64,000 bases of DNA from Thermoproteota archaeon (GTDB lineage: Archaea > Korarchaeota > Korarchaeia > Korarchaeales > JAOZGB01), in the NCBI GenBank assembly GCA_037917685.1, contig JAVCBU010000003.1, positions 221,320-285,319 on the forward strand, given 5' to 3'. Each line of letters opens with the position of its first letter. The first letter of the stretch is position 1. Of this stretch, positions 8,431-17,326 are shown piece by piece. The translations under genes and the position numbers were made by a program. Under the pieces are notes generated by a model. That model saw only the letters and a list, made by a program, of their open reading frames with translations. It made no database searches and was not told the DNA's origin.

Positions 8431-10104
8431 TTACTCTTTCAATCTCTTATACGCTTTTACAGCGTCGTAGGCCACTATTGCGCCTAAGATGAATAGGACC
8501 AGGCCTACTATTCCGAATATCCCGTTTAGAGTTAAAGCTACCGTTGGATAGTTTGCGAGGCTTCCCTTCACTATGGGTGTTCCGAGTTTTATCGCGCGGA
8601 AGAACCCTGCAGATTCAAAGATTAAGGCAGCTTCACATGTTATTATCATAAATAGCGCTGGCGCCAATGTGTATATTGTTGGTCTCTTAGTCTTAGCTAG
8701 GAAGATTGTTACGAGGGTTAGCGCCAGGCCTGCTAGTAGCTGGTTTGAACCACCGAACAACAGCCACAGGTTTATCCATGCCCCTGTGTATGCGAATATA
8801 TCAGCTATTATTAGCCCTATCAATGCCCCCACATACTTGTTCCCGAGAACTCCTCCTCCCACCATGTCTCCCCAGACAAGCCAGAAGAATCTCACAGCTA
8901 TTATCCCTATCGTTATGGCGTATAGCTCAAGCCACATGGCGTAGAATGCTTTAATCCATGCAACCCCGGCTCCACCCGGTGCTATAAGCTTTGCTGCCCC
9001 TGCTACGAGGCTTTCCCATTTTACTCCTCCAAGTGTCTTTATTTCATCGGGTGTTAGAACCATATACGCCGCTAGGGATGCCAGGGCGAGTAATCCCTCT
9101 GTAAGCATTGCTCCTGCCCCTACTGGCAGAGCGTCGGTTTCAACATCTAGCTGGGTTGCTGATCCTGAGGTTGATACCAGGCTATGCCATCCTGAAATCG
9201 CACCACAAGCTATTGACACTGTTAGGATCGGCCAAATAGGCCCCGGGTTCCAGAAGTTACCGGTTGTCCCGAGTATTCCCCCCCATGCTGTCTGCTCGAT
9301 CTTAACTCCTGTTACCGGTGAGATCAGGGCCGCCAGGATTAGGAGTATGATTCCGAATATTGCTGGGTATGATGCCACGTATACTACTGGCTGGGCGAAA
9401 TACATTAACGGTGCAACTGCGCCGATAAACAGTATTATACTTGTAAATATCATCCAGAAGGTTAGGTTTGCGTACTCTATCGGGTATAGCTTGCCCAGGA
9501 TTATGCCTATTATGGTTATGATTAGTCCTATGGCTGTAGATGTCCCTATTCCCATTTTTACTTTAAACATCAGTACCCCGCTTGCTATTCCCCCTATAAT
9601 CAGGAATATGATTGATAGCACTGAGACCGGGTATGTTTTGAAGAATACGCTGCACAGGACTGCGAAAACCGCTATTATTAGGATCAGGTAGAAGAATAGG
9701 AATCCCATGAGCATCTTTCTTGCCCTTGGGCTTATATACTCGTAGGTTAGCGGCCCCATCGTTTTACCTTCATTCCTGACAGACATGAAGAGGGATGAGT
9801 AGTCATGGATCCATCCTATGAAAAAGTTTCCAAGTAGTATCCAGATGAGGGCTGGAACCCAGCCGTAGAATAATGCGATAAAGGGTCCTAGTATCGGTCC
9901 TAGGCCTGCGATGCCTTTAAACTGGAATCCGTACAGTACGTACCTGCTTACAGGGAAAAATGTTATTCCATCCATGTACATGTGGGCTGGAGTGGCCTTC
10001 TCGGGGTCGGGCTTCCAGACATTTTTGTCGTACCACTTTGCGTAGAGCTTGTACGCCGCGGCGTATACTACTAGACCTAGAACTACGAACCAGAATGGAT
10101 ACAT
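8431..10104 (-). CDS. cstA: Carbon starvation protein A (CstA) family permease
   Basis: TPAHMYMDG, IAGLGPILGP, YGWVPALIWILLGNFFIGWIHDY, IACGAISGWHSLVS, GAMLTEG, LWLLFGGSNQLLA. Confidence 0.95.
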   Translation of the reverse strand: MYPFWFVVLGLVVYAAAYKLYAKWYDKNVWKPDPEKATPAHMYMDGITFFPVSRYVLYGFQFKGIAGLGPILGPFIALFYGWVPALIWILLGNFFIGWIHDYSSLFMSVRNEGKTMGPLTYEYISPRARKMLMGFLFFYLILIIAVFAVLCSVFFKTYPVSVLSIIFLIIGGIASGVLMFKVKMGIGTSTAIGLIITIIGIILGKLYPIEYANLTFWMIFTSIILFIGAVAPLMYFAQPVVYVASYPAIFGIILLILAALISPVTGVKIEQTAWGGILGTTGNFWNPGPIWPILTVSIACGAISGWHSLVSTSGSATQLDVETDALPVGAGAMLTEGLLALASLAAYMVLTPDEIKTLGGVKWESLVAGAAKLIAPGGAGVAWIKAFYAMWLELYAITIGIIAVRFFWLVWGDMVGGGVLGNKYVGALIGLIIADIFAYTGAWINLWLLFGGSNQLLAGLALTLVTIFLAKTKRPTIYTLAPALFMIITCEAALIFESAGFFRAIKLGTPIVKGSLANYPTVALTLNGIFGIVGLVLFILGAIVAYDAVKAYKRLKE

Positions 10105-10143
10105 GTCGGGTCTTATACTAAGTGCCGTATTAGCTTTTAAAAT

Positions 10144-10773
10144 TTGCCGATAGCTTTAAGGATTGTGGGACTTGGGGTCCTTATAGTTTTCACTCTGACG
10201 GCTGTGATGCTTATATCCTACTTCTACGGTAGACATGTGAACTATTCGCTTCAAAGAGGTTACTGGAAGGTCCTATCAGGGGTTGTTAAATCGTATTCCA
10301 AGAAGGTTAGCTATAGAAGTCTCGGTTCTTCGATGTTTCAAGTTTCATTCCCTTGCAATCCGCCGTTAAAAAGGGTTGAGATAACAGTTCTACTTATGGA
10401 TAGAGAATTCTTAACCCATTACATAGCCTCAAGACTTATGGGGAGGAGTGACGAGTTTATTCTCAAGGCTTCTTTCAGTAAAGACCCAGACTTCACCTTT
10501 CAGATAGGCGGAAAGGCAAAGGGAATGGACAGGCTTGAGCCTGGCTGGGTTGGCTTTGAGGTTTATACTGATAATAAAGCTAGAGCCATAAGGCTTCTAG
10601 GAGATAACGAGTTTAGGAGAACTATTAGGAGACTTAAAGGCAGAATTAACCTTCTTGTTATAGGTGAAGGGGTGCCAAACATTCTGGTTAGGTGCAAAGC
10701 CGAATCTGAAGTGGCAAGGCTTATGCTTAGGCTTGCGGAGAGAGCCTCCCACCTAGTGGCATCTAAGGTTTGA
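10144..10773 (+). CDS. N-terminally anchored membrane protein resembling DUF1682/CCDC47
   Basis: Single TM followed by SYFYGRHVN..YW and VEITVLLMDREFL..D.FILKA. Resemblance recognised by eye only. Confidence 0.5.
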   Translation: MPIALRIVGLGVLIVFTLTAVMLISYFYGRHVNYSLQRGYWKVLSGVVKSYSKKVSYRSLGSSMFQVSFPCNPPLKRVEITVLLMDREFLTHYIASRLMGRSDEFILKASFSKDPDFTFQIGGKAKGMDRLEPGWVGFEVYTDNKARAIRLLGDNEFRRTIRRLKGRINLLVIGEGVPNILVRCKAESEVARLMLRLAERASHLVASKV

Positions 10774-11256
10774 AAGGATTCCAATAAAATTTTCTGCTTC
10801 TTCAACTGACATGTCTCCCTCAGCTACTATATCTATTCTTCTAGCCGTCTCCTTGCACATGAATGCTACCTCTATTTTAGTCCATCTTATCATGTCTCCA
10901 AGTAAGAGGTACTTCCTCCTTCCAGCTTTTTTAATAGAGTACCCTGCGTTGTGGCCGTTAATCTTCACAAACCCTGACCTAACAGAATTTCTGGAAGCCT
11001 TAGCCACCCATCTATCCAGGTTAAAACCTAGGATGGGTTCCCTGACCGTTATCTTTACGGCTAAAGGCTTTTCACCCCTTATAATATTGAGTGTAATGTA
11101 GCCCGATGCAACCCACCTATCTCCACCTGTCTCTCTCACGAGTTCAACATCTATATAGCCTGCAGGCCTAATCTGCCATTCTTCAGGTAGGAGGATACTT
11201 ACGAACCTTACCTCTCCAAGGATTGGATTTTTGGCGTCGATGTTAGCTTTCTGCAT
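10753..11256 (-). CDS. Hypothetical protein within the CstA/ArsA cluster
   Basis: 167-aa ORF with ATG start, convergent with and overlapping 10144..10773; ends LRCH. Confidence 0.65.
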   Translation of the reverse strand: MQKANIDAKNPILGEVRFVSILLPEEWQIRPAGYIDVELVRETGGDRWVASGYITLNIIRGEKPLAVKITVREPILGFNLDRWVAKASRNSVRSGFVKINGHNAGYSIKKAGRRKYLLLGDMIRWTKIEVAFMCKETARRIDIVAEGDMSVEEAENFIGILSNLRCH

Positions 11257-11324
11257 TCAATATGGGCATCCTAAATTAAATATTAAAAGTGTGATGTGCC
11301 CAGAATACTCTGGCTTGAAAAGGT

Positions 11325-11579
11325 ATGCTCAGAAGGTTTAAATCAATATTAAGGGATTTCTTCTACGGCTTTGCCGTTCTAACTCCAGTTAAGTCTCTCA
11401 AGAAGGCTAAATTCATAGAGGACTCTGCAATGATGATTGTTGCCCTGGGCGACATGCTTGGTATACCATTTGCGCCGCCGATTTACAAGCTTAGAATTTT
11501 GCCATACTTTATTCCAATGGTCGGATTATGGAAGGAGTACATTTTAAAGGAGAAAGATATAGTGGAGAAGCTCGAATAG
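11325..11579 (+). CDS. Small CstA/ArsA-associated protein (cory-CC-star-like), paralog 1
   Basis: FFYG..MIVALGDMLGIPFAPPIYKLRILPY..WK..KEKDI. Confidence 0.75.
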   Translation: MLRRFKSILRDFFYGFAVLTPVKSLKKAKFIEDSAMMIVALGDMLGIPFAPPIYKLRILPYFIPMVGLWKEYILKEKDIVEKLE

Positions 11580-11642
11580 AAGCTGAAAATTACAAACTTT
11601 TTTAAGCGGTGCTTTCCCCAACTATTAAGTGGTGATTGCAAG

Positions 11643-11930
11643 GTGTTATTCAAAAGGAAAAAGAAGGAGGAGGGGTCTGGAGAGGAGGTTAAGGAGGCTA
11701 TAAAAGGAGTTTTCTATGGTATGGCTTCGCATCAAATGGTTAGATACATGCTTAAGACAAGGATGTACCTTGAGCATCTCTTCATGTTGATAACCCTCGG
11801 CGACATGTTGGGGATACCGATACTTCCTCCTTACTATTCTCTAAAGCTTTTGCCCTATGCCCTACCTAATATTGAAAGTTGGAAGAGGAGGCTTTTCAAG
11901 GAGAGAGACATAACAGACATGCTTTATTAG
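11643..11930 (+). CDS. Small CstA/ArsA-associated protein (cory-CC-star-like), paralog 2
   Basis: VFYG..LFMLITLGDMLGIPILPPYYSLKLLPY..WK..KERDI; clear paralog of 11325..11579. Confidence 0.8.
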   Translation: MLFKRKKKEEGSGEEVKEAIKGVFYGMASHQMVRYMLKTRMYLEHLFMLITLGDMLGIPILPPYYSLKLLPYALPNIESWKRRLFKERDITDMLY

Positions 11931-11939
11931 GGGATAGGT

Positions 11940-12944
11940 ATGCCCGTATCCCTACCCGAATTTCTTAGAGAAAACCCGGACATTAAGATAATAGTCTATG
12001 CAGGCAAGGGGGGCCTAGGAAAAACCACCTGTAGTGCCGCAACAGCCTACTGGTTCGCCAAGCAGGGGAGAAAGCCCCTATGCTTTAGTACAGATCCCCA
12101 GGCTTCCCTAAGCGACATATTTGAAAGAGATATCTTTGGGAAAGGCGTCGTGGAAATCATACCCAACCTCTACGTTGTAGAGATAGACGCTGACCGGAGA
12201 ATCTCCGAGTTCCAGGATGAGATCAGAAAGCAGATAAAGGAGATGTACGGGTTAGAAGAGGTTCCGGGGGAGATTGAAGAGTATATCAAGACGTCTGCCT
12301 ATGAGCCCGCGATGCATGAATCTGCAACCTATGATGCAATGGCAGACCTAGTCGCTAGTGGGAAGTATAATCCCTATATTTTCGACATGCCGCCCTTCGG
12401 CCACGGGGTTAGGATGATCTCAATGGCTCAGATACTTGACGCATGGATTGACAAGATGGAAGAGACCAGGAAGAAGGCTGCCGAATATGCTGCAGCAGCT
12501 GCTAAGCTTAGGGGAATCTCATCTGAAACCGAGGACGCTGTTATAAGGGAGCTTACATCTATTAGGGAAAAGCTTGACTTCTTCAGGGACATGCTCACAA
12601 ATGAGAGAACCTGCGCGTTCTTCATGGTTCTAATACCAGAAAAAATGGCTATACTCGACACCAAGAGGGCTCTAGAAATGTTTAGGAAGCTTAAAATAAG
12701 GCTTAGCGGTGTGATTGTCAACCAGGTTTACCCTCCAGAACTACTTGAAAGGAGAGACATAACCGACTTTCTAAGGAGAAGAATTGAAATGCAACAGAGA
12801 TATATGAAGGTTATTAACAGGGAGCTCGGGGAGTACGTCAGGGCTGTAATACCAATGTTCGACAGGGAGCCGAAGGGGATAGATATGATTGCAAAGGTTG
12901 CCGAGCACATGTTTGAAAAGCCAGGTTTGGAGGTGTTTGAGTAG
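11940..12944 (+). CDS. arsA: TRC40/GET3/ArsA family ATPase (catalytic motifs intact)
   Basis: GKGGLGKTT deviant Walker A, STDPQASLSD Switch I, FDMPPFGH Switch II, VIVNQV. Confidence 0.92.
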   Translation: MPVSLPEFLRENPDIKIIVYAGKGGLGKTTCSAATAYWFAKQGRKPLCFSTDPQASLSDIFERDIFGKGVVEIIPNLYVVEIDADRRISEFQDEIRKQIKEMYGLEEVPGEIEEYIKTSAYEPAMHESATYDAMADLVASGKYNPYIFDMPPFGHGVRMISMAQILDAWIDKMEETRKKAAEYAAAAAKLRGISSETEDAVIRELTSIREKLDFFRDMLTNERTCAFFMVLIPEKMAILDTKRALEMFRKLKIRLSGVIVNQVYPPELLERRDITDFLRRRIEMQQRYMKVINRELGEYVRAVIPMFDREPKGIDMIAKVAEHMFEKPGLEVFE

Positions 12945-13960
12945 TGTCAGGCCATGTAACCTTTAAGATGTTTATCGAGCAAAACCCCACGGTTAAATAC
13001 CTCTTTACGGGGGGCAAAGGAGGGGTTGGAAAGACCATAGTGGCTGCTGGTATAGCCGCCTATTTTGCCGAAACCGGGAGAAAGACTCTTATAGCATCCC
13101 TTAACCCGGTACACTCCCTTTCAAGCCTTTTTGAGCAAGACCTCTCCGGGGGAGTTATAAAGGAAGTCTCAGGCATCGACAACCTATATGCGATTGAAGT
13201 CGACATCACAGACAGGGTTAGAAGGTATAAAGAACAGCTTACCGAGAGGCTAAGATGGTTCCTAAAGTGGGCTGACATCTCTGTAAAGGCCGACGAGTTC
13301 ATAGAGATAGCTTCAACTAACCCAGCATTTGAGGAGAGCGCCATGTTCGACGAAACCATAGATATAATGCTCAGAGAGGGTAAAAACTTTGACAAGATAG
13401 TTTTCGACTGCGCGGCCGTCGCAAACGCTGTGAGGCTTCTAGGACTTAACAAGATATATGGAATGTGGCTTAAGAGGATGATTAAGAGCAGGAAAGAAGC
13501 TTTGTCCCTAAGGGTTAAACTCTCATTCAGGAAGGATAAGGTTATGGAGGAGATAAAGAAAGACCCAATGATGGCGGATCTAATAGAGATGAACAGGAAG
13601 ATAACAGAGGCGTCAGGCATCTTCGGGAATCCCAAGCAAACAGCATTCTTCTTCGTAACTCTACCATTATCTCTCCCAATCTCCGTGGTTGAGAGGTTTA
13701 TAAGGATGGTTCAAGGTTTCAACATAGCAGTAGGCGGGGTTATAGTAAACGGAGTGCTTAGGAGGGAGCTTGCTGAGAAGGGAACAGAATATCTTAAGAA
13801 TAAATATGAGGAGCAGAGAAGATACATGGAGATCATAAGAGAGAAAATGTGGCCTATGGTTAGAGCTGTAATACCGCTTTATGAGACCGAAATAGTCGGT
13901 GTAAGAATGGTTAAAAGAATCGCCAGCGATCTGGCATCCTGGACTCCAGAGAAGATGTAG
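12944..13960 (+). CDS. arsA: TRC40/GET3/ArsA family ATPase with degenerate Switch I/II
   Basis: GKGGVGKTI, SLNPVHSL (Asp->Asn), FDCAAVANAVRLL; GTG start overlaps the upstream TAG. Confidence 0.9.
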   Translation: MSGHVTFKMFIEQNPTVKYLFTGGKGGVGKTIVAAGIAAYFAETGRKTLIASLNPVHSLSSLFEQDLSGGVIKEVSGIDNLYAIEVDITDRVRRYKEQLTERLRWFLKWADISVKADEFIEIASTNPAFEESAMFDETIDIMLREGKNFDKIVFDCAAVANAVRLLGLNKIYGMWLKRMIKSRKEALSLRVKLSFRKDKVMEEIKKDPMMADLIEMNRKITEASGIFGNPKQTAFFFVTLPLSLPISVVERFIRMVQGFNIAVGGVIVNGVLRRELAEKGTEYLKNKYEEQRRYMEIIREKMWPMVRAVIPLYETEIVGVRMVKRIASDLASWTPEKM

Positions 13961-14100
13961 AGCGTAGACATGCAATATTTCACGTTCCTAAACCCTATTT
14001 CTACACACAAAGGTAACAGGTAATTTAACAATACATCTTCACCTCCTAGGAGGTGAGAATCTATTTAGGATAGAATCCACTATTTAACTTTCATGGTTAT

Positions 14101-15072
14101 ATGAACTCCGGGAAAATTCTCGTCGCCGGCGCCGGACCTGCAGGTCTTAGCTGTGCCTACAATGCCTCTATAAAAGGCTATAAAGTCCACCTTTTAGAGA
14201 AGAGAGGCACCCTAGCCTACAAGCCTTGCGGCGGGGCCGTACCTGAAGAGGCTTTTAAATACATCCCATTCGCGGGCAAAAAGTTTATACTGAATCGTAT
14301 AGTTAGATGTAGGCTTACTATCCGCTGGAAGACTGTTAAGATTATTGAGGGTGAAACCTCCGGCTATATTATAGATAAGAGAACCCTCCTGGAAGAGCTA
14401 TTATGCGCCGCGGAAGCTGAGGGGTGTAAGGTAAGCCTGAACAAGAGGGCAAAACCGTCCATGGCAGAGGACTACGACCTGGTAGTTGACGCTACAGGGC
14501 ATGAGAGGGCTCTAGCCCTACAGATGGGTGTAGACTACTCGGGTTACAAGCTTATACCAGCCTGCCAGCTATACTGTAGGGGGCAGGGTCCTGATGAAGA
14601 TGAGATTTGGGTTGAAATAGTAGCCTACGGCTACCTCTGGGTGTTCCCACATGGAGGCGTATACAATGCTGGGATAGGAGGCTTCTCAAGTCCAACCATC
14701 CTAAGAAGGATACTCCTGTCGAGGCTTGAGGAGGCCGGTTTAAAACCACTGTCGAAGCCGAGATTTTCAGCCTTGTCTGTTGGAGGCGTTATAAAAACAT
14801 TGAAGGCCGGAAGACTTATAATTATTGGGGAAGCCGCAGGCATGGTTATGCCATCGGTCGGTGAGGGGATAAGATATGCTCTTTACTCAGGGAAGATATG
14901 CCTCCGAGACTACCGTGAGAGATGGGAGGCGGAATACGGTTCCAGGTTTAGAAAGGCTCAAATGCTTCTAAAAATGCTACTATTAATGCCTGGGAGAATG
15001 AGGGTTAAAGCGATGAAGTACATGCCCATCCCGATACTAAAACTTTTCTACCAGGGAGCCCTCTCCAGCTAG
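14101..15072 (+). CDS. Geranylgeranyl reductase-like FAD-dependent oxidoreductase
   Basis: GAGPAGLSCA, KPCGGA, VVDATG, GYLWVFP, GEAAGMVMPSVGEGIRYA. Confidence 0.85.
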   Translation: MNSGKILVAGAGPAGLSCAYNASIKGYKVHLLEKRGTLAYKPCGGAVPEEAFKYIPFAGKKFILNRIVRCRLTIRWKTVKIIEGETSGYIIDKRTLLEELLCAAEAEGCKVSLNKRAKPSMAEDYDLVVDATGHERALALQMGVDYSGYKLIPACQLYCRGQGPDEDEIWVEIVAYGYLWVFPHGGVYNAGIGGFSSPTILRRILLSRLEEAGLKPLSKPRFSALSVGGVIKTLKAGRLIIIGEAAGMVMPSVGEGIRYALYSGKICLRDYRERWEAEYGSRFRKAQMLLKMLLLMPGRMRVKAMKYMPIPILKLFYQGALSS

Positions 15073-15163
15073 CATGTTCCAAATTTTAAACCTGTTCCAG
15101 ATAGTTTTATTTTTGGTTCATATGGTAAATTCTAATATGAAATCAGCGTACAATAATGTTAAA

Positions 15164-17326
15164 ATGAAATTTACGGTCTATGATGCCATCGCAGCTATCA
15201 TAGTCATAGCCCATCTCTCACTATTAACAATGGGAAGTGCCGGGCTCCCGACAGGTTGGGATACACCGTACCATCTTCTAATGGGGAAAATGTACGCTGA
15301 CTACGGTAGGGTTACTCTGTGGGACTACTACGAGTACGCCCCTGTTGGGAGGCCCCAGGTCTATCCGCCGCTCCTCCACGTTATAATTTGGTGGGTGCAC
15401 AGCCTTACAGGGGTGGGCTACATATCGATCGGCAGGTTCTTTGCAGTAGTCCAGTTCCCCCTGGCTCTGCTTTCAATATACTATTATGTAAGAAGAATAT
15501 TCGGGTGCCCCGAAGCCCTGTACAGCCTTATAACCCTCTCGTCTATTTCCATGTTTTGGATGTGGGAGGTAACCGTTGCCCCGACTGCGGTGCTTGTGAT
15601 ACTTTTCCCCGCATTCCTGTACTACTTTTACAAGAAAAGCCTCATACCCTCAACCCTGATACTTGTATGTGCATTTTACATGCATCTGGGGATGCCCATC
15701 GTATTTGTAGCTTCAGCCATCATGATAAGCCTGCTTGCTGCAGCTAAGAAAGTTGGATACTGGAGCTTCCTAGCAAAGTGTTTAGGGATAGCCCTGCTTT
15801 TGTATCTACCATGGCTTATCCACGTATTAAAGAACCTTGAATACATACACGCCAGAATGATGGTCCACGGGTTCCAAGGTATAGCTTTAGGTTTCATTGC
15901 TGGAAACCTGGTATACCTGGTGTTAACGTTCGCAGGCCTTATAATTTCAATAGTAGAATATGGGAGGGGAACCCTAAAGTATCTTGTCCCGATAGCTGGC
16001 TTCATAGGGTTCCTTCCGACGTTCTCCTACGGGGCAAGATACTTCCTCCACTCACCTGTTGCAAACTCTATCCTTGCAGGAATAGCCGCTGCATGGGCTG
16101 TTAGAAAAGCTAGGCGGAGGCTTGCAGGGTGGGAGGGGAAAGCCCTAGCTGCAGCGATAATAATGGTGGTCTCCCTTCAGGCCGTGTGCGAGCCAACCCT
16201 AGGCTTAAGAAGGCCTTTCCAGAAGACGCCGAGACATCAGGGTAAGCGTTGCTCTTCACCCCTTCTGTCAGAGATTATGATGGCAAGTGGCGCTATGCCA
16301 AGCGACCCTTGGAGATTCTCATGTTCAGACCCGGATCTGCTAGCCCTCTCCGACTGGATAAGGGAGAACATCCCCGAGGATGAAATCCTCCACGTAAACA
16401 TGGGGGCTGTAGCAGCTTATATCACACTAACCACAGGCAGGCTGACAGACAGCGGAATGTACGGTGAGGTTAGAACAGAGGAGATGATGGCCGCGATACA
16501 TCAGGGTAGGAAGTCCGGGATATTCGTCTTCACTCCCTACGGGCCAGGAGGCAGGAGGATACCGGCAAACCTACATGGTAAGGAGCTCTTCCAGTCAGGC
16601 CCATACAAGGTTATAGAGATCTACCAGCCTGAACATGCAGACCTGACCTTGCTTAAAGGAAAGGTAAATATAAGCTGGGTATCCATAGCGGCAGGAAAGC
16701 CTGGGGATCTTGAAAACGCTAAAACACTACTTGAACAGCTGAACTATAAGTCAGTCGTAGTAGTGGTTCCCCAGGACAGGGTCAACAAGAGAAACCTACG
16801 CTTTATATCCGAAGTTTTCCAAGGGTACAATCTCGCCATGGAAATATTCGTCACAGACTGGGGCACCCTCCAAGACGTGTTAAGCCAGGTGAAGGCCAGC
16901 GGTATATCTAAAGTCATCCTATTAGTAACCCAGGACACACTCCCAGCCGGGGACCCAGCACAGGCTAGGGAAATGGTGGAAAGCGTGGGAGTTCAGATTT
17001 ACTACTCAATAGCTGGACCGCCCCTTGTCGACCCAGGATGGGACAGGCCTAGACTAAGAAGCTTTCTTGAAGGGGGAAACGTTATAGTACATATTCCAGC
17101 GCTTCCTGTCCTCGCTGATATTCTTGAGGCGGACCTGCAGGTCCTCGGCGATTGGGACTGTAACATCAAGGTTCAGGTGGACCTTGTTAAGGACAAGCCC
17201 CTAAGGGAAGATGTTCTGGCAAATACCCTAAGCCAGGCTTCCTGGTTCGACGTGGAATTAGGGGTAGGTATACCTGGAGACATGCTGTATCAAGCCCTGG
17301 ACATGATAAGCATTCTGCTAGGGTAG
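15164..17326 (+). CDS. Polytopic GT-C-type (PMT/STT3-like) membrane glycosyltransferase with a C-terminal soluble domain
   Basis: GWDTPYH after TM1, WDYYEYAPVGRPQVYPPLLH, about 11-12 TM segments, then LSDWIRENIPEDE. Confidence 0.6.
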   Translation: MKFTVYDAIAAIIVIAHLSLLTMGSAGLPTGWDTPYHLLMGKMYADYGRVTLWDYYEYAPVGRPQVYPPLLHVIIWWVHSLTGVGYISIGRFFAVVQFPLALLSIYYYVRRIFGCPEALYSLITLSSISMFWMWEVTVAPTAVLVILFPAFLYYFYKKSLIPSTLILVCAFYMHLGMPIVFVASAIMISLLAAAKKVGYWSFLAKCLGIALLLYLPWLIHVLKNLEYIHARMMVHGFQGIALGFIAGNLVYLVLTFAGLIISIVEYGRGTLKYLVPIAGFIGFLPTFSYGARYFLHSPVANSILAGIAAAWAVRKARRRLAGWEGKALAAAIIMVVSLQAVCEPTLGLRRPFQKTPRHQGKRCSSPLLSEIMMASGAMPSDPWRFSCSDPDLLALSDWIRENIPEDEILHVNMGAVAAYITLTTGRLTDSGMYGEVRTEEMMAAIHQGRKSGIFVFTPYGPGGRRIPANLHGKELFQSGPYKVIEIYQPEHADLTLLKGKVNISWVSIAAGKPGDLENAKTLLEQLNYKSVVVVVPQDRVNKRNLRFISEVFQGYNLAMEIFVTDWGTLQDVLSQVKASGISKVILLVTQDTLPAGDPAQAREMVESVGVQIYYSIAGPPLVDPGWDRPRLRSFLEGGNVIVHIPALPVLADILEADLQVLGDWDCNIKVQVDLVKDKPLREDVLANTLSQASWFDVELGVGIPGDMLYQALDMISILLG

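Follow-up and report, generated by a model that had tools for sequence, protein, structure and literature searches.

Castillo and Saier (Int J Microbiol 2010:187373, PMC2963123) described a cstA-cstX-cstY-arsA cluster from SEED gene context, in which cstA stands with a cstX of ~90 amino acids (aa), a one-helix cstY of ~210 aa in archaea and single-domain arsA homologues of ~330 aa. In their proposal, CstX serves as the coupler through which the ATPase acts on CstA; they also recorded that the Asp of an 'SXD' motif 'can be substituted only by N', a remark from which their text draws no conclusion. Get3, ArsA, NifH and MinD form one class of dimeric ATPases, for which the equality of the two sites is an open question. 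In such ATPases, a subunit extends its signature Lys to the nucleotide of its partner (PMC12415280), and the switch I Asp, which is Asp57 in yeast Get3, activates the attacking water (PMC10248533). An Asp-to-Asn exchange at switch I gives a non-hydrolysing ArsA and has been used to trap ATP-bound Get3 (PMC12415280); the exchanged protein still closes on ATP without hydrolysis (PMC12415280, PMC10248533). Here, we analyze two adjacent ATPase genes, A1 and A2, in a 64,000-nucleotide (nt) window of contig JAVCBU010000003.1 from the Thermoproteota archaeon assembly GCA_037917685.1 (Korarchaeota lineage); all positions are window coordinates unless a contig is named. We consider it probable that A1 and A2 each contribute one half of a heterodimeric ATPase of the Get3/ArsA type (deviant Walker A) with a single working site, and that this heterodimer is the ATPase part of a CstA module.

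Two plus-strand open reading frames (ORFs) fill positions 11940-13960. The first, A1 (11940..12944), encodes a 334-aa protein with a complete catalytic site, and the second, A2 (12944..13960, GTG start), encodes a 338-aa protein with an intact P-loop and Asn at the position of the catalytic Asp. Both are members of the ArsA/Get3 family: Pfam PF02374 (ArsA_ATPase) matched A1 with 225.3 bits (E 1.3e-66) and A2 with 190.8 bits (E 4.4e-56) at a cut-off of 24.3, and NCBIfam TIGR00345 gave 212.5 and 196 bits, respectively, at a cut-off of 135. The best solved matches were archaeal Get3 homologues, 3zq6 for A1 (E 3.9e-56) and 3ug6 for A2 (E 3.2e-48), and the two proteins are 30% identical to each other over 328 columns. 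Read directly from the sequence, a translational coupling signal spans positions 12929..12946 on the plus strand; it consists of GGAGGTG, apparently a Shine-Dalgarno-like site ahead of the A2 start, an 8-nt spacer, and the A1 stop codon TAG overlapping the A2 start codon GTG by one base.

The deviant Walker A motif with its signature Lys (GKGGxGK[ST]) is present in both proteins, as GKGGLGKT in A1 (aa 22-29, 12003-12026) and as GKGGVGKT in A2 (aa 24-31, 13013-13036), and it is invariant in the 121 A1-type and 120 A2-type sequences that we collected. A1 also carries the catalytic signature of the switches, with STDP at aa 50-53, in which Asp52 is encoded by GAT at 12093-12095, and DMPPFGH at aa 149-155 (12384-12404), which keeps the D, P, G and H of switch II. 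A2, though a family member by profile, lacks this signature: it has SLNPVH at aa 52-57, and its DCAAVAN at aa 155-161 (13406-13426) keeps only D and A. We place Asn54 of A2 (codon AAC, 13103-13105) at the catalytic Asp position because HMMER, aligning A2 to 3ug6, a Get3 homologue from Methanocaldococcus, puts it over the Asp of STDPAH ('slnpvhsl' over 'stdpahsl'); the same alignment sets 'fdcaavanavr' over 'fdtaptghtlr'. In addition, the Asp that ends the LSD motif, D59 in A1, is replaced by S61 in A2. A regular-expression search over both proteins found no CxxC motif.

The asymmetry is not peculiar to this genome. Among the best 120 homologues of A2 (57-100% identity), S-L-N-P-[VI]-H-S and D-[CT]-A-A-V-A-N were kept in 120/120 and Asp occurred in 0/120. 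These homologues come from Bathyarchaeia, Baldrarchaeia, Korarchaeia-type, Nitrososphaeria and Asgard metagenome-assembled genomes (MAGs) and from a few MAGs labelled Anaerolineae or Bacillota, the taxon labels being those on the MAG records. A private mutation or a read error in A2 is ruled out, since the change is common to all 120. All of them also keep the P-loop, the Walker B residue Asp155 and Asn269 of the VxVN motif, and Pro311 and Glu316 in the loop after that motif are each kept in 119. The nucleotide-binding frame of A2 has thus been kept while its catalytic residues were replaced, which argues for nucleotide binding retained under selection rather than for decay. In the A1 set, both F-S-T-D-P-Q-A-S-L, which holds Asp52, and G154-H155 were kept in 121/121. 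The same picture emerged from related genomic loci, where Asn was found in 17/17 A2 copies that have their N terminus and Asp in 15/15 such A1 copies, and where each of the 15 loci with both genes N-terminally complete carried the Asp/Asn pair. A search of 1.84 billion cluster representatives further revealed a second, bacterial type with STNPVH and DTAPTAN in Methylomirabilota MAGs.

The original prediction, made from the window's sequence, had named the STDP and DxxPxGH motifs of A1, the GKGGVGKT, SLNPVH and DCAAVAN motifs of A2 and the absence of CxxC from both, and sequence, alignment and search agree with it on all of these. It had equated the Asp-to-Asn change with a hydrolysis-deficient substitution, which is in print for ArsA and Get3 (PMC12415280, PMC10248533), and it had set beforehand, as its own check, the conservation of this change in A2 orthologues, which the counts above uphold.

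To place A1 and A2 in their family, we built a FastTree tree of 60 single-domain sequences, from which tandem proteins and fragments shorter than 295 aa were excluded. With a midpoint root, the A1 clade and the A2 clade are sisters. Asn occupies the switch I position in 17 of the 20 A2-clade tips and in 0 of the 40 other tips, and no A2-clade tip has Asp; P0144, one of the tips without Asn, is missing the switch I region altogether. Most simply, this topology would reflect a single old duplication after which one of the copies lost catalysis. Inside the A1 clade, P0257 (SIDFQA and DMPSLYYS) is of the A1 type with a switch II that is degenerate, too.

Tandem ArsA-like proteins of 600-700 aa were considered as possible A2+A1 fusions. 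This was rejected, as the halves of all 16 proteins tested have about equally low identity (22-32%) to A1 and to A2. Two of the tandem proteins carry Asn at switch I in one half only, P0139 in its N half (SVNPAH, together with VDMAAGAH) and P0197 in its C half (SINPSH). An asymmetry with one dead site thus seems to have evolved at least twice in the ArsA/Get3 family; neither protein is an A2+A1 fusion.

A1 and A2 are also inherited together. We surveyed 43 genomes of the same phylum, 25 of them of high quality, and found A2 in 19 (14 of the high-quality ones); A1 and the CstX-type gene S2, which lies directly upstream of A1, occur in the identical 19. CstA is present in those 19 and, as a contig-end fragment, in one 72%-complete genome, and a second, weaker CstX-type match is present in all 19 carriers of S2. 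The two ATPase genes are adjacent in 18 of the 19 carriers, and CstA lies on the same contig, within ~4 kilobases of the S2 gene, in 17. Within three genera presence varies (1/5, 11/21 and 2/4 genomes), always for the whole set together. In 18 related loci from a genome collection, the contiguous order S2-A1-A2 holds wherever the contig allows, and this order is fixed across several archaeal phyla. Co-inheritance, adjacency and the one-base stop/start overlap fit an obligate pair.

A more distant example stands on the high-G+C metagenome contig L027 (3825-6862), which is probably bacterial. Here, two CstX-like genes are followed by an A1-like gene (SVDPQAS, DLVPLGH) and an A2-like gene (STNPVHS, DTAPTAN), with a transposase-like ORF downstream of the pair. 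When metagenomes were scanned with P0148, the single-domain representative nearest the A1 clade, this 40%-identical bacterial A1/A2 pair was the only return apart from weak matches.

From the sequences we infer a natural A1/A2 heterodimer, nucleotide binding by A2 and lost hydrolysis at its site. A1 and A2 quite probably form an asymmetric heterodimer, and we hold with similar confidence that the A2 site is dead for hydrolysis. In the mechanism that we propose, ATP binding at both sites would close the A1-A2 dimer, with signature Lys25 of A2 completing the A1 site in trans. The A2 site would retain its ATP unsplit and serve as a latch, and hydrolysis at the A1 site alone would reset the dimer. 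Switch II of A1 (DMPPFGH) would relay the movement to the helical subdomains and to CstX. More tentatively, the helical subdomains may grip CstX and so tie ATP turnover to CstA, much as ArsA works on ArsB; the membrane-anchored CstY may be the docking subunit, and the complex may drive or gate transport by CstA. Such a coupling of ATP turnover to CstA transport, proposed by analogy, is close to an even call, leaning slightly against. On this view, the A1/A2 complex would be neither an arsenic pump nor a general tail-anchor targeting factor.

The pair forms the end of a seven-gene module made up of CstA, CstY, a 167-aa protein, S1, S2, A1 and A2. No RNA sequencing run was listed for positions 10100-14100. 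By its sequences, the locus agrees in all features tested with the CstA-associated ArsA homologues described in 2010: single-domain ATPases of ~330 aa, a CstA gene, a CstX of ~90 aa, a one-helix CstY of ~210 aa and no ars genes in the cluster (PMC2963123). Cluster 15 of that study is similar in a further respect, as its adjacent ATPase paralogues are 25-31% identical, compared with 30% here. In its text, the paper treats the ATPases as one class and is silent on any catalytic difference between paralogues; the word 'heterodimer' is absent from it, and it names neither the 167-aa protein nor a CCDC47/TtfA-like fold of CstY. The gene cluster has hence been known since 2010; the catalytic asymmetry is real and conserved and, as far as we found, has not been discussed in print. 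The literature searched contained no description of the pair as a heterodimer with one dead site, the BagAB literature, which may bear on it, lying outside that search; nor did it contain a bench test of the CstA cluster, in print since 2010.

ArsA, the ATPase of the arsenite pump, is among the known systems closest to the pair. It has the same fold, its two nucleotide sites, which are not equivalent, lie opposite one another in a (pseudo)dimer (PDB 1f48; PMC12415280), and it acts on a secondary carrier, ArsB, without itself being a transporter. It differs in being one two-domain chain with both sites competent for hydrolysis (PMC12415280), whereas A1 and A2 are two single-domain proteins. It also differs in binding metalloid through three Cys; judged by Cys counts rather than by residue-by-residue alignment to ArsA, A1 has three, A2 one and S1 and S2 none, and none of these lies in a CxxC motif. 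The scores for the ArsA equivalogs are far from their cut-offs, at 88.0 (A1) and 88.2 (A2) against 650 for TIGR04291 and at 129.6 and 110.4 against 800 for NF041417. The flanking genes encode CstA, CstY, CstX and a geranylgeranyl-reductase-family protein in place of an ars operon (arsB/acr3, arsD, arsR). An arsenic pump was rejected on the equivalog scores, the single-domain build (ArsA is fused, at ~580 aa), the few Cys and the gene context.

Get3/TRC40 (PDB 3ug6, 3zq6) supplies the best solved matches and shares the motif layout, and the change that A2 carries naturally has served in experiments to block hydrolysis. It differs as a homodimer with two equal sites and, in eukaryotes, a CxxC zinc site, while we find two distinct subunits without CxxC in a transporter cluster. 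Some archaeal Get3 homologues are also held by a CxxC zinc site. With regard to these two relatives, the original prediction, which saw in the pair an obligate heterodimer like a split and asymmetric ArsA, stands in part. The constant Asn of A2, the constant Asp and Gly-His of A1 (121/121) and the co-inheritance speak for its heterodimer with one working site; its likening of the pair to a split ArsA gives way, as does a free-standing Get3, to an ATPase of a CstA module. Its reading of the gene context was incomplete, as it had missed the CstA/CstX/CstY module.

Two further systems resemble the pair in single respects. The mycobacterial BagA and BagB (Rv3679/Rv3680, PDB 6bs3-6bs5) are two different Get3-like chains that are encoded side by side and were solved in one entry. 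They are distant, with profile matches of E 2e-8 and 1.2e-3 over the N-terminal 60-80 residues, and the passages on them that we examined give no CstA context. Orthology with BagAB was rejected on scores far below the NCBIfam cut-offs, confined to the N-terminal region: 46.9 (A1) and 42.1 (A2) bits against 400 for NF053622 (BagA), and 38.9 and 26.2 against 521 for NF053621 (BagB). The nucleotide-binding domains of CFTR (PMC5626490) hold two nucleotides at one interface, where one site hydrolyses and the other stays occupied. Their ATP-binding cassette fold is unrelated, and the analogy is a functional one only.

The coupler of 2010 is represented by two CstX paralogues. S1 (84 aa, 11325..11579, +) is 40% identical to S2 (95 aa, 11643..11930, +), and its position differs between related loci, while S2 is always directly upstream of A1. 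The 120 homologues listed for S2 carry the precomputed domain PF25952, that is DUF7990 (Pfam 38.1; name from Atlas). One S2 homologue, P0352, is from Thermococcus, and Castillo and Saier list Thermococcus kodakarensis KOD1 among the carriers (PMC2963123). S2 is 66-90% identical across phyla, which exceeds the conservation of the ATPases; its invariant residues are G, D, PPYY, P, P and D-x-T-D. Its maximum KD19 hydropathy is 1.56 (~1.56-1.58 for S1 and S2), which is borderline for a membrane helix. Both proteins match NF041419, the 'cory-CC-star protein', below its threshold of 80 bits (S1, E 1.9e-4, 21.3 bits; S2, E 2.9e-8, 33.6 bits); should this match be genuine, Get3-like pairs in Actinobacteria may come with small proteins of the CstX type, too.

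We predicted the complex of S2 with A1+A2 and two ATP, together with controls. S2 docked with a score of 0.60 (runs 0.51, 0.60 and 0.60), with at least 78% of the contacts common to the runs and a predicted local distance difference test (pLDDT) score of at least 57 for the partner. The best control, in which A2 was replaced and A1 kept, reached 0.12, and each of the two unrelated partners scored 0.00. In the calibration, 116 of 157 solved complexes attained the docking mark, as did 2 of 215 mismatches; with a score no higher than 0.60, only 18 of the 157 solved complexes attained it, together with both of the passing mismatches. The prediction lends weak support to a docking of S2 on A1+A2.

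The remaining members of the module frame the strongest alternative. The CstA gene (8431..10104, -) encodes a 557-aa membrane transporter (Pfam PF02554, E 2.4e-96) for which no chain among the solved structures matched at E<=0.01. CstY (209 aa, 10144..10773, +) has its maximum KD19 hydropathy of 2.58 at aa 7-25, and its AlphaFold2 model has a pLDDT of 90.9. Hydropathy and model together predict one N-terminal membrane helix followed by a cytoplasmic domain of CCDC47/TtfA-like fold. In VIA-align, the model matched chain 4 of 7tm3 with Z 17.0 and a root-mean-square deviation of 2.3 Å over 201 residues; further matches were chain 4 of 9i78 (Z 15.1, residues 76-368), chain 7 of 6w6l (Z 12.6) and TtfA (6t84, Z 12.1), and the next hit had Z 7.2. 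We take chain 4 of 9i78 to be CCDC47 because its residue range agrees with the 76-368 given for CCDC47 in the 9i78 paper (PMC12572126), and we infer that the 7tm3 and 6w6l chains are CCDC47 as well. CstY is no member of the CCDC47 family by sequence, as no Pfam family matched at E<=0.01, and it lacks the C-terminal ribosome-docking latch helices of CCDC47, ending at residue 209 with no long extension. No text linking CCDC47 and TtfA was found in the literature searched.

The 167-aa protein (10753..11256, -) is soluble, is conserved beside the module and has no Pfam or NCBIfam match. Conservation of this protein, as of CstY, extends to 7 of the 18 related loci, and their alignments comprise 7 sequences each. 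Cys134 and Cys166 are invariant, with a C-terminal Cys-His in which His follows Cys166 in 6 of the 7 sequences, and a further His in a G-G-H stretch is near-invariant; these residues suggest a possible metal or redox site. Its model (pLDDT 89.3) gave weak Foldseek matches to PsbP/Mog1/DcrB/SciW-type folds (best E 9.4e-4, template modelling score ~0.5), and we regard a PsbP-like fold as a lead.

These accessory folds allow the same asymmetric heterodimer to be read as a biogenesis device. The pair would capture its cargo, either a hydrophobic hairpin in CstX or stretches of CstA, and deliver it to CstY, with the PsbP/SciW-like protein as a holdase. The three CCDC47 chains that CstY resembles, well above the next unrelated hit, come from translocon structures of the endoplasmic reticulum, and CCDC47 is part of the PAT intramembrane chaperone (PMC12572126). 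Get3 is itself a targeting factor for membrane proteins (PMC10248533), the weak matches of the 167-aa protein include a SciW bound to a transmembrane domain, and S1 and S2 have the borderline hydrophobic stretches noted above. On the other hand, the conservation of CstX is among the highest in the module, as suits a fixed subunit more than a client. TtfA has the same fold and is a transport factor by its PDB title, and the fold therefore suits a transporter accessory too; a common fold alone is no proof of function. CstA homologues in E. coli are not known to need such ATPases, which we set against this alternative. We consider the biogenesis device rather unlikely and a biogenesis role of the module as a whole similarly doubtful. 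In its most far-reaching form, the module would be a prokaryotic assembly machine for membrane proteins. Its Get3-type heterodimer, which a dead site permanently latched by ATP would make one-directional, would load the hairpin protein CstX, or segments of CstA, onto a membrane-anchored receptor with the CCDC47 fold. This, too, is improbable on present evidence; if true, the machine would be an archaeal and bacterial counterpart, possibly a forerunner, of eukaryotic GET-type targeting and PAT-type intramembrane chaperoning.

One could also envisage that A1 and A2 form separate homodimers in the same pathway, with A1 as the motor and A2 as a non-hydrolysing nucleotide sensor or scaffold. Most solved members of the family are homodimers (the Get3 entries), and co-inheritance and adjacency indicate a common pathway rather than contact. 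Four observations count against such an arrangement: S2, A1 and A2 are coupled in fixed order across several archaeal phyla; the signature Lys of A2 is invariant, and its in-trans role at the partner site (PMC12415280) would be of little use where both sites are dead; S2 loses its predicted placement once A2 is replaced and A1 kept, a point of weak support; and 6bs3 is a solved heteromeric precedent. We therefore judge separate homodimers quite unlikely. Very improbable, finally, is an A2 that is still an active ATPase, with Asn54 and the altered switch II compensated elsewhere and both sites turning over, for although the entire nucleotide-binding frame of A2 is conserved and the two ArsA domains hydrolyse ATP at unequal rates, so that unequal need not mean dead (PMC12415280), the Asp-to-Asn change was introduced deliberately to obtain non-hydrolysing ArsA and likewise to capture ATP-bound Get3 (PMC12415280), A2 additionally lacks the switch II Gly-His and the LSD-motif Asp, and Asp occurs in no A2-clade tip.

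Several points nevertheless weigh against an A1/A2 heterodimer with a single working site as the ATPase of a CstA module. At the level of the site, turnover at a slow rate could persist despite Asn54, or compensation could come from another residue. The topology of the A1 and A2 clades comes from FastTree with a midpoint root, branch support not being considered, and two A2-clade tips besides P0144 lack the Asn, namely P0122 (SLSTLH) and P0133, whose N terminus is aberrant. In the presence survey, G011 is the exception to adjacency, with its genes on separate short contigs, and the A2 match of G001 (C49:4917-5924) contains an in-frame TAA, for which an error of sequencing, a broken copy and a wrongly joined contig are all conceivable. 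As the surveyed genomes are kin, the 19/19 overlap reflects fewer independent gains and losses than the counts suggest. The L027 contig showed no CstA match in the 9,025 bases examined of its 9,296, and the link between the pair and CstA is therefore not absolute in every locus seen. The docking prediction speaks to the placement of S2 and not to the contact between A1 and A2. Finally, the predicted CCDC47-like and PsbP/SciW-like accessory folds suggest membrane-protein biogenesis no less than they suggest transport.

If the heterodimer with one working site holds, the pair would be a natural dimer with one dead site, distributed from Thermoproteota and Asgard archaea to bacterial MAGs, in which the equality of the two sites of this ATPase class could be addressed without engineered mutants. 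The module unites CstA, a widespread nutrient transporter family, with a Get3-like motor and a protein predicted to have the CCDC47/TtfA fold, and the eukaryotic counterparts of these three act on membrane proteins. The outcome could be either a new way to drive or gate a secondary carrier or a prokaryotic route of membrane-protein assembly.

Elsewhere in the genome, on other contigs, we noted two more full-length ArsA-family genes, L019:1459-2406 (+) and L022:1228-2406 (+). Their switch I reads SSDPSP or SSDQAP and their switch II DTAPAGG, without the His; the full DTAPTGH motif occurs in no ArsA-family gene found in this genome. In the tree, the two proteins cluster together, apart from A1 and A2. 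Each gene adjoins an ORF of the UbiA-like membrane prenyltransferase type, and one also adjoins a 398-aa geranylgeranyl-reductase-like ORF.

Immediately past the module lies the geranylgeranyl-reductase-family gene (14101-15072, +; TIGR02032, 135.8 bits, under the cut-off of 158.8), followed by a gene for a 750-aa membrane protein (15074-17326, +) whose match to PMT_2 is weak (E 2.5e-4). In none of the 18 related loci did either gene turn up next to the pair. The 140-nt gap between A2 and the first of these genes contains, by direct reading, a perfect 18-nt palindrome, tcacctcctaggaggtga, at 14039..14056, which possibly marks the end of the operon or a binding site.

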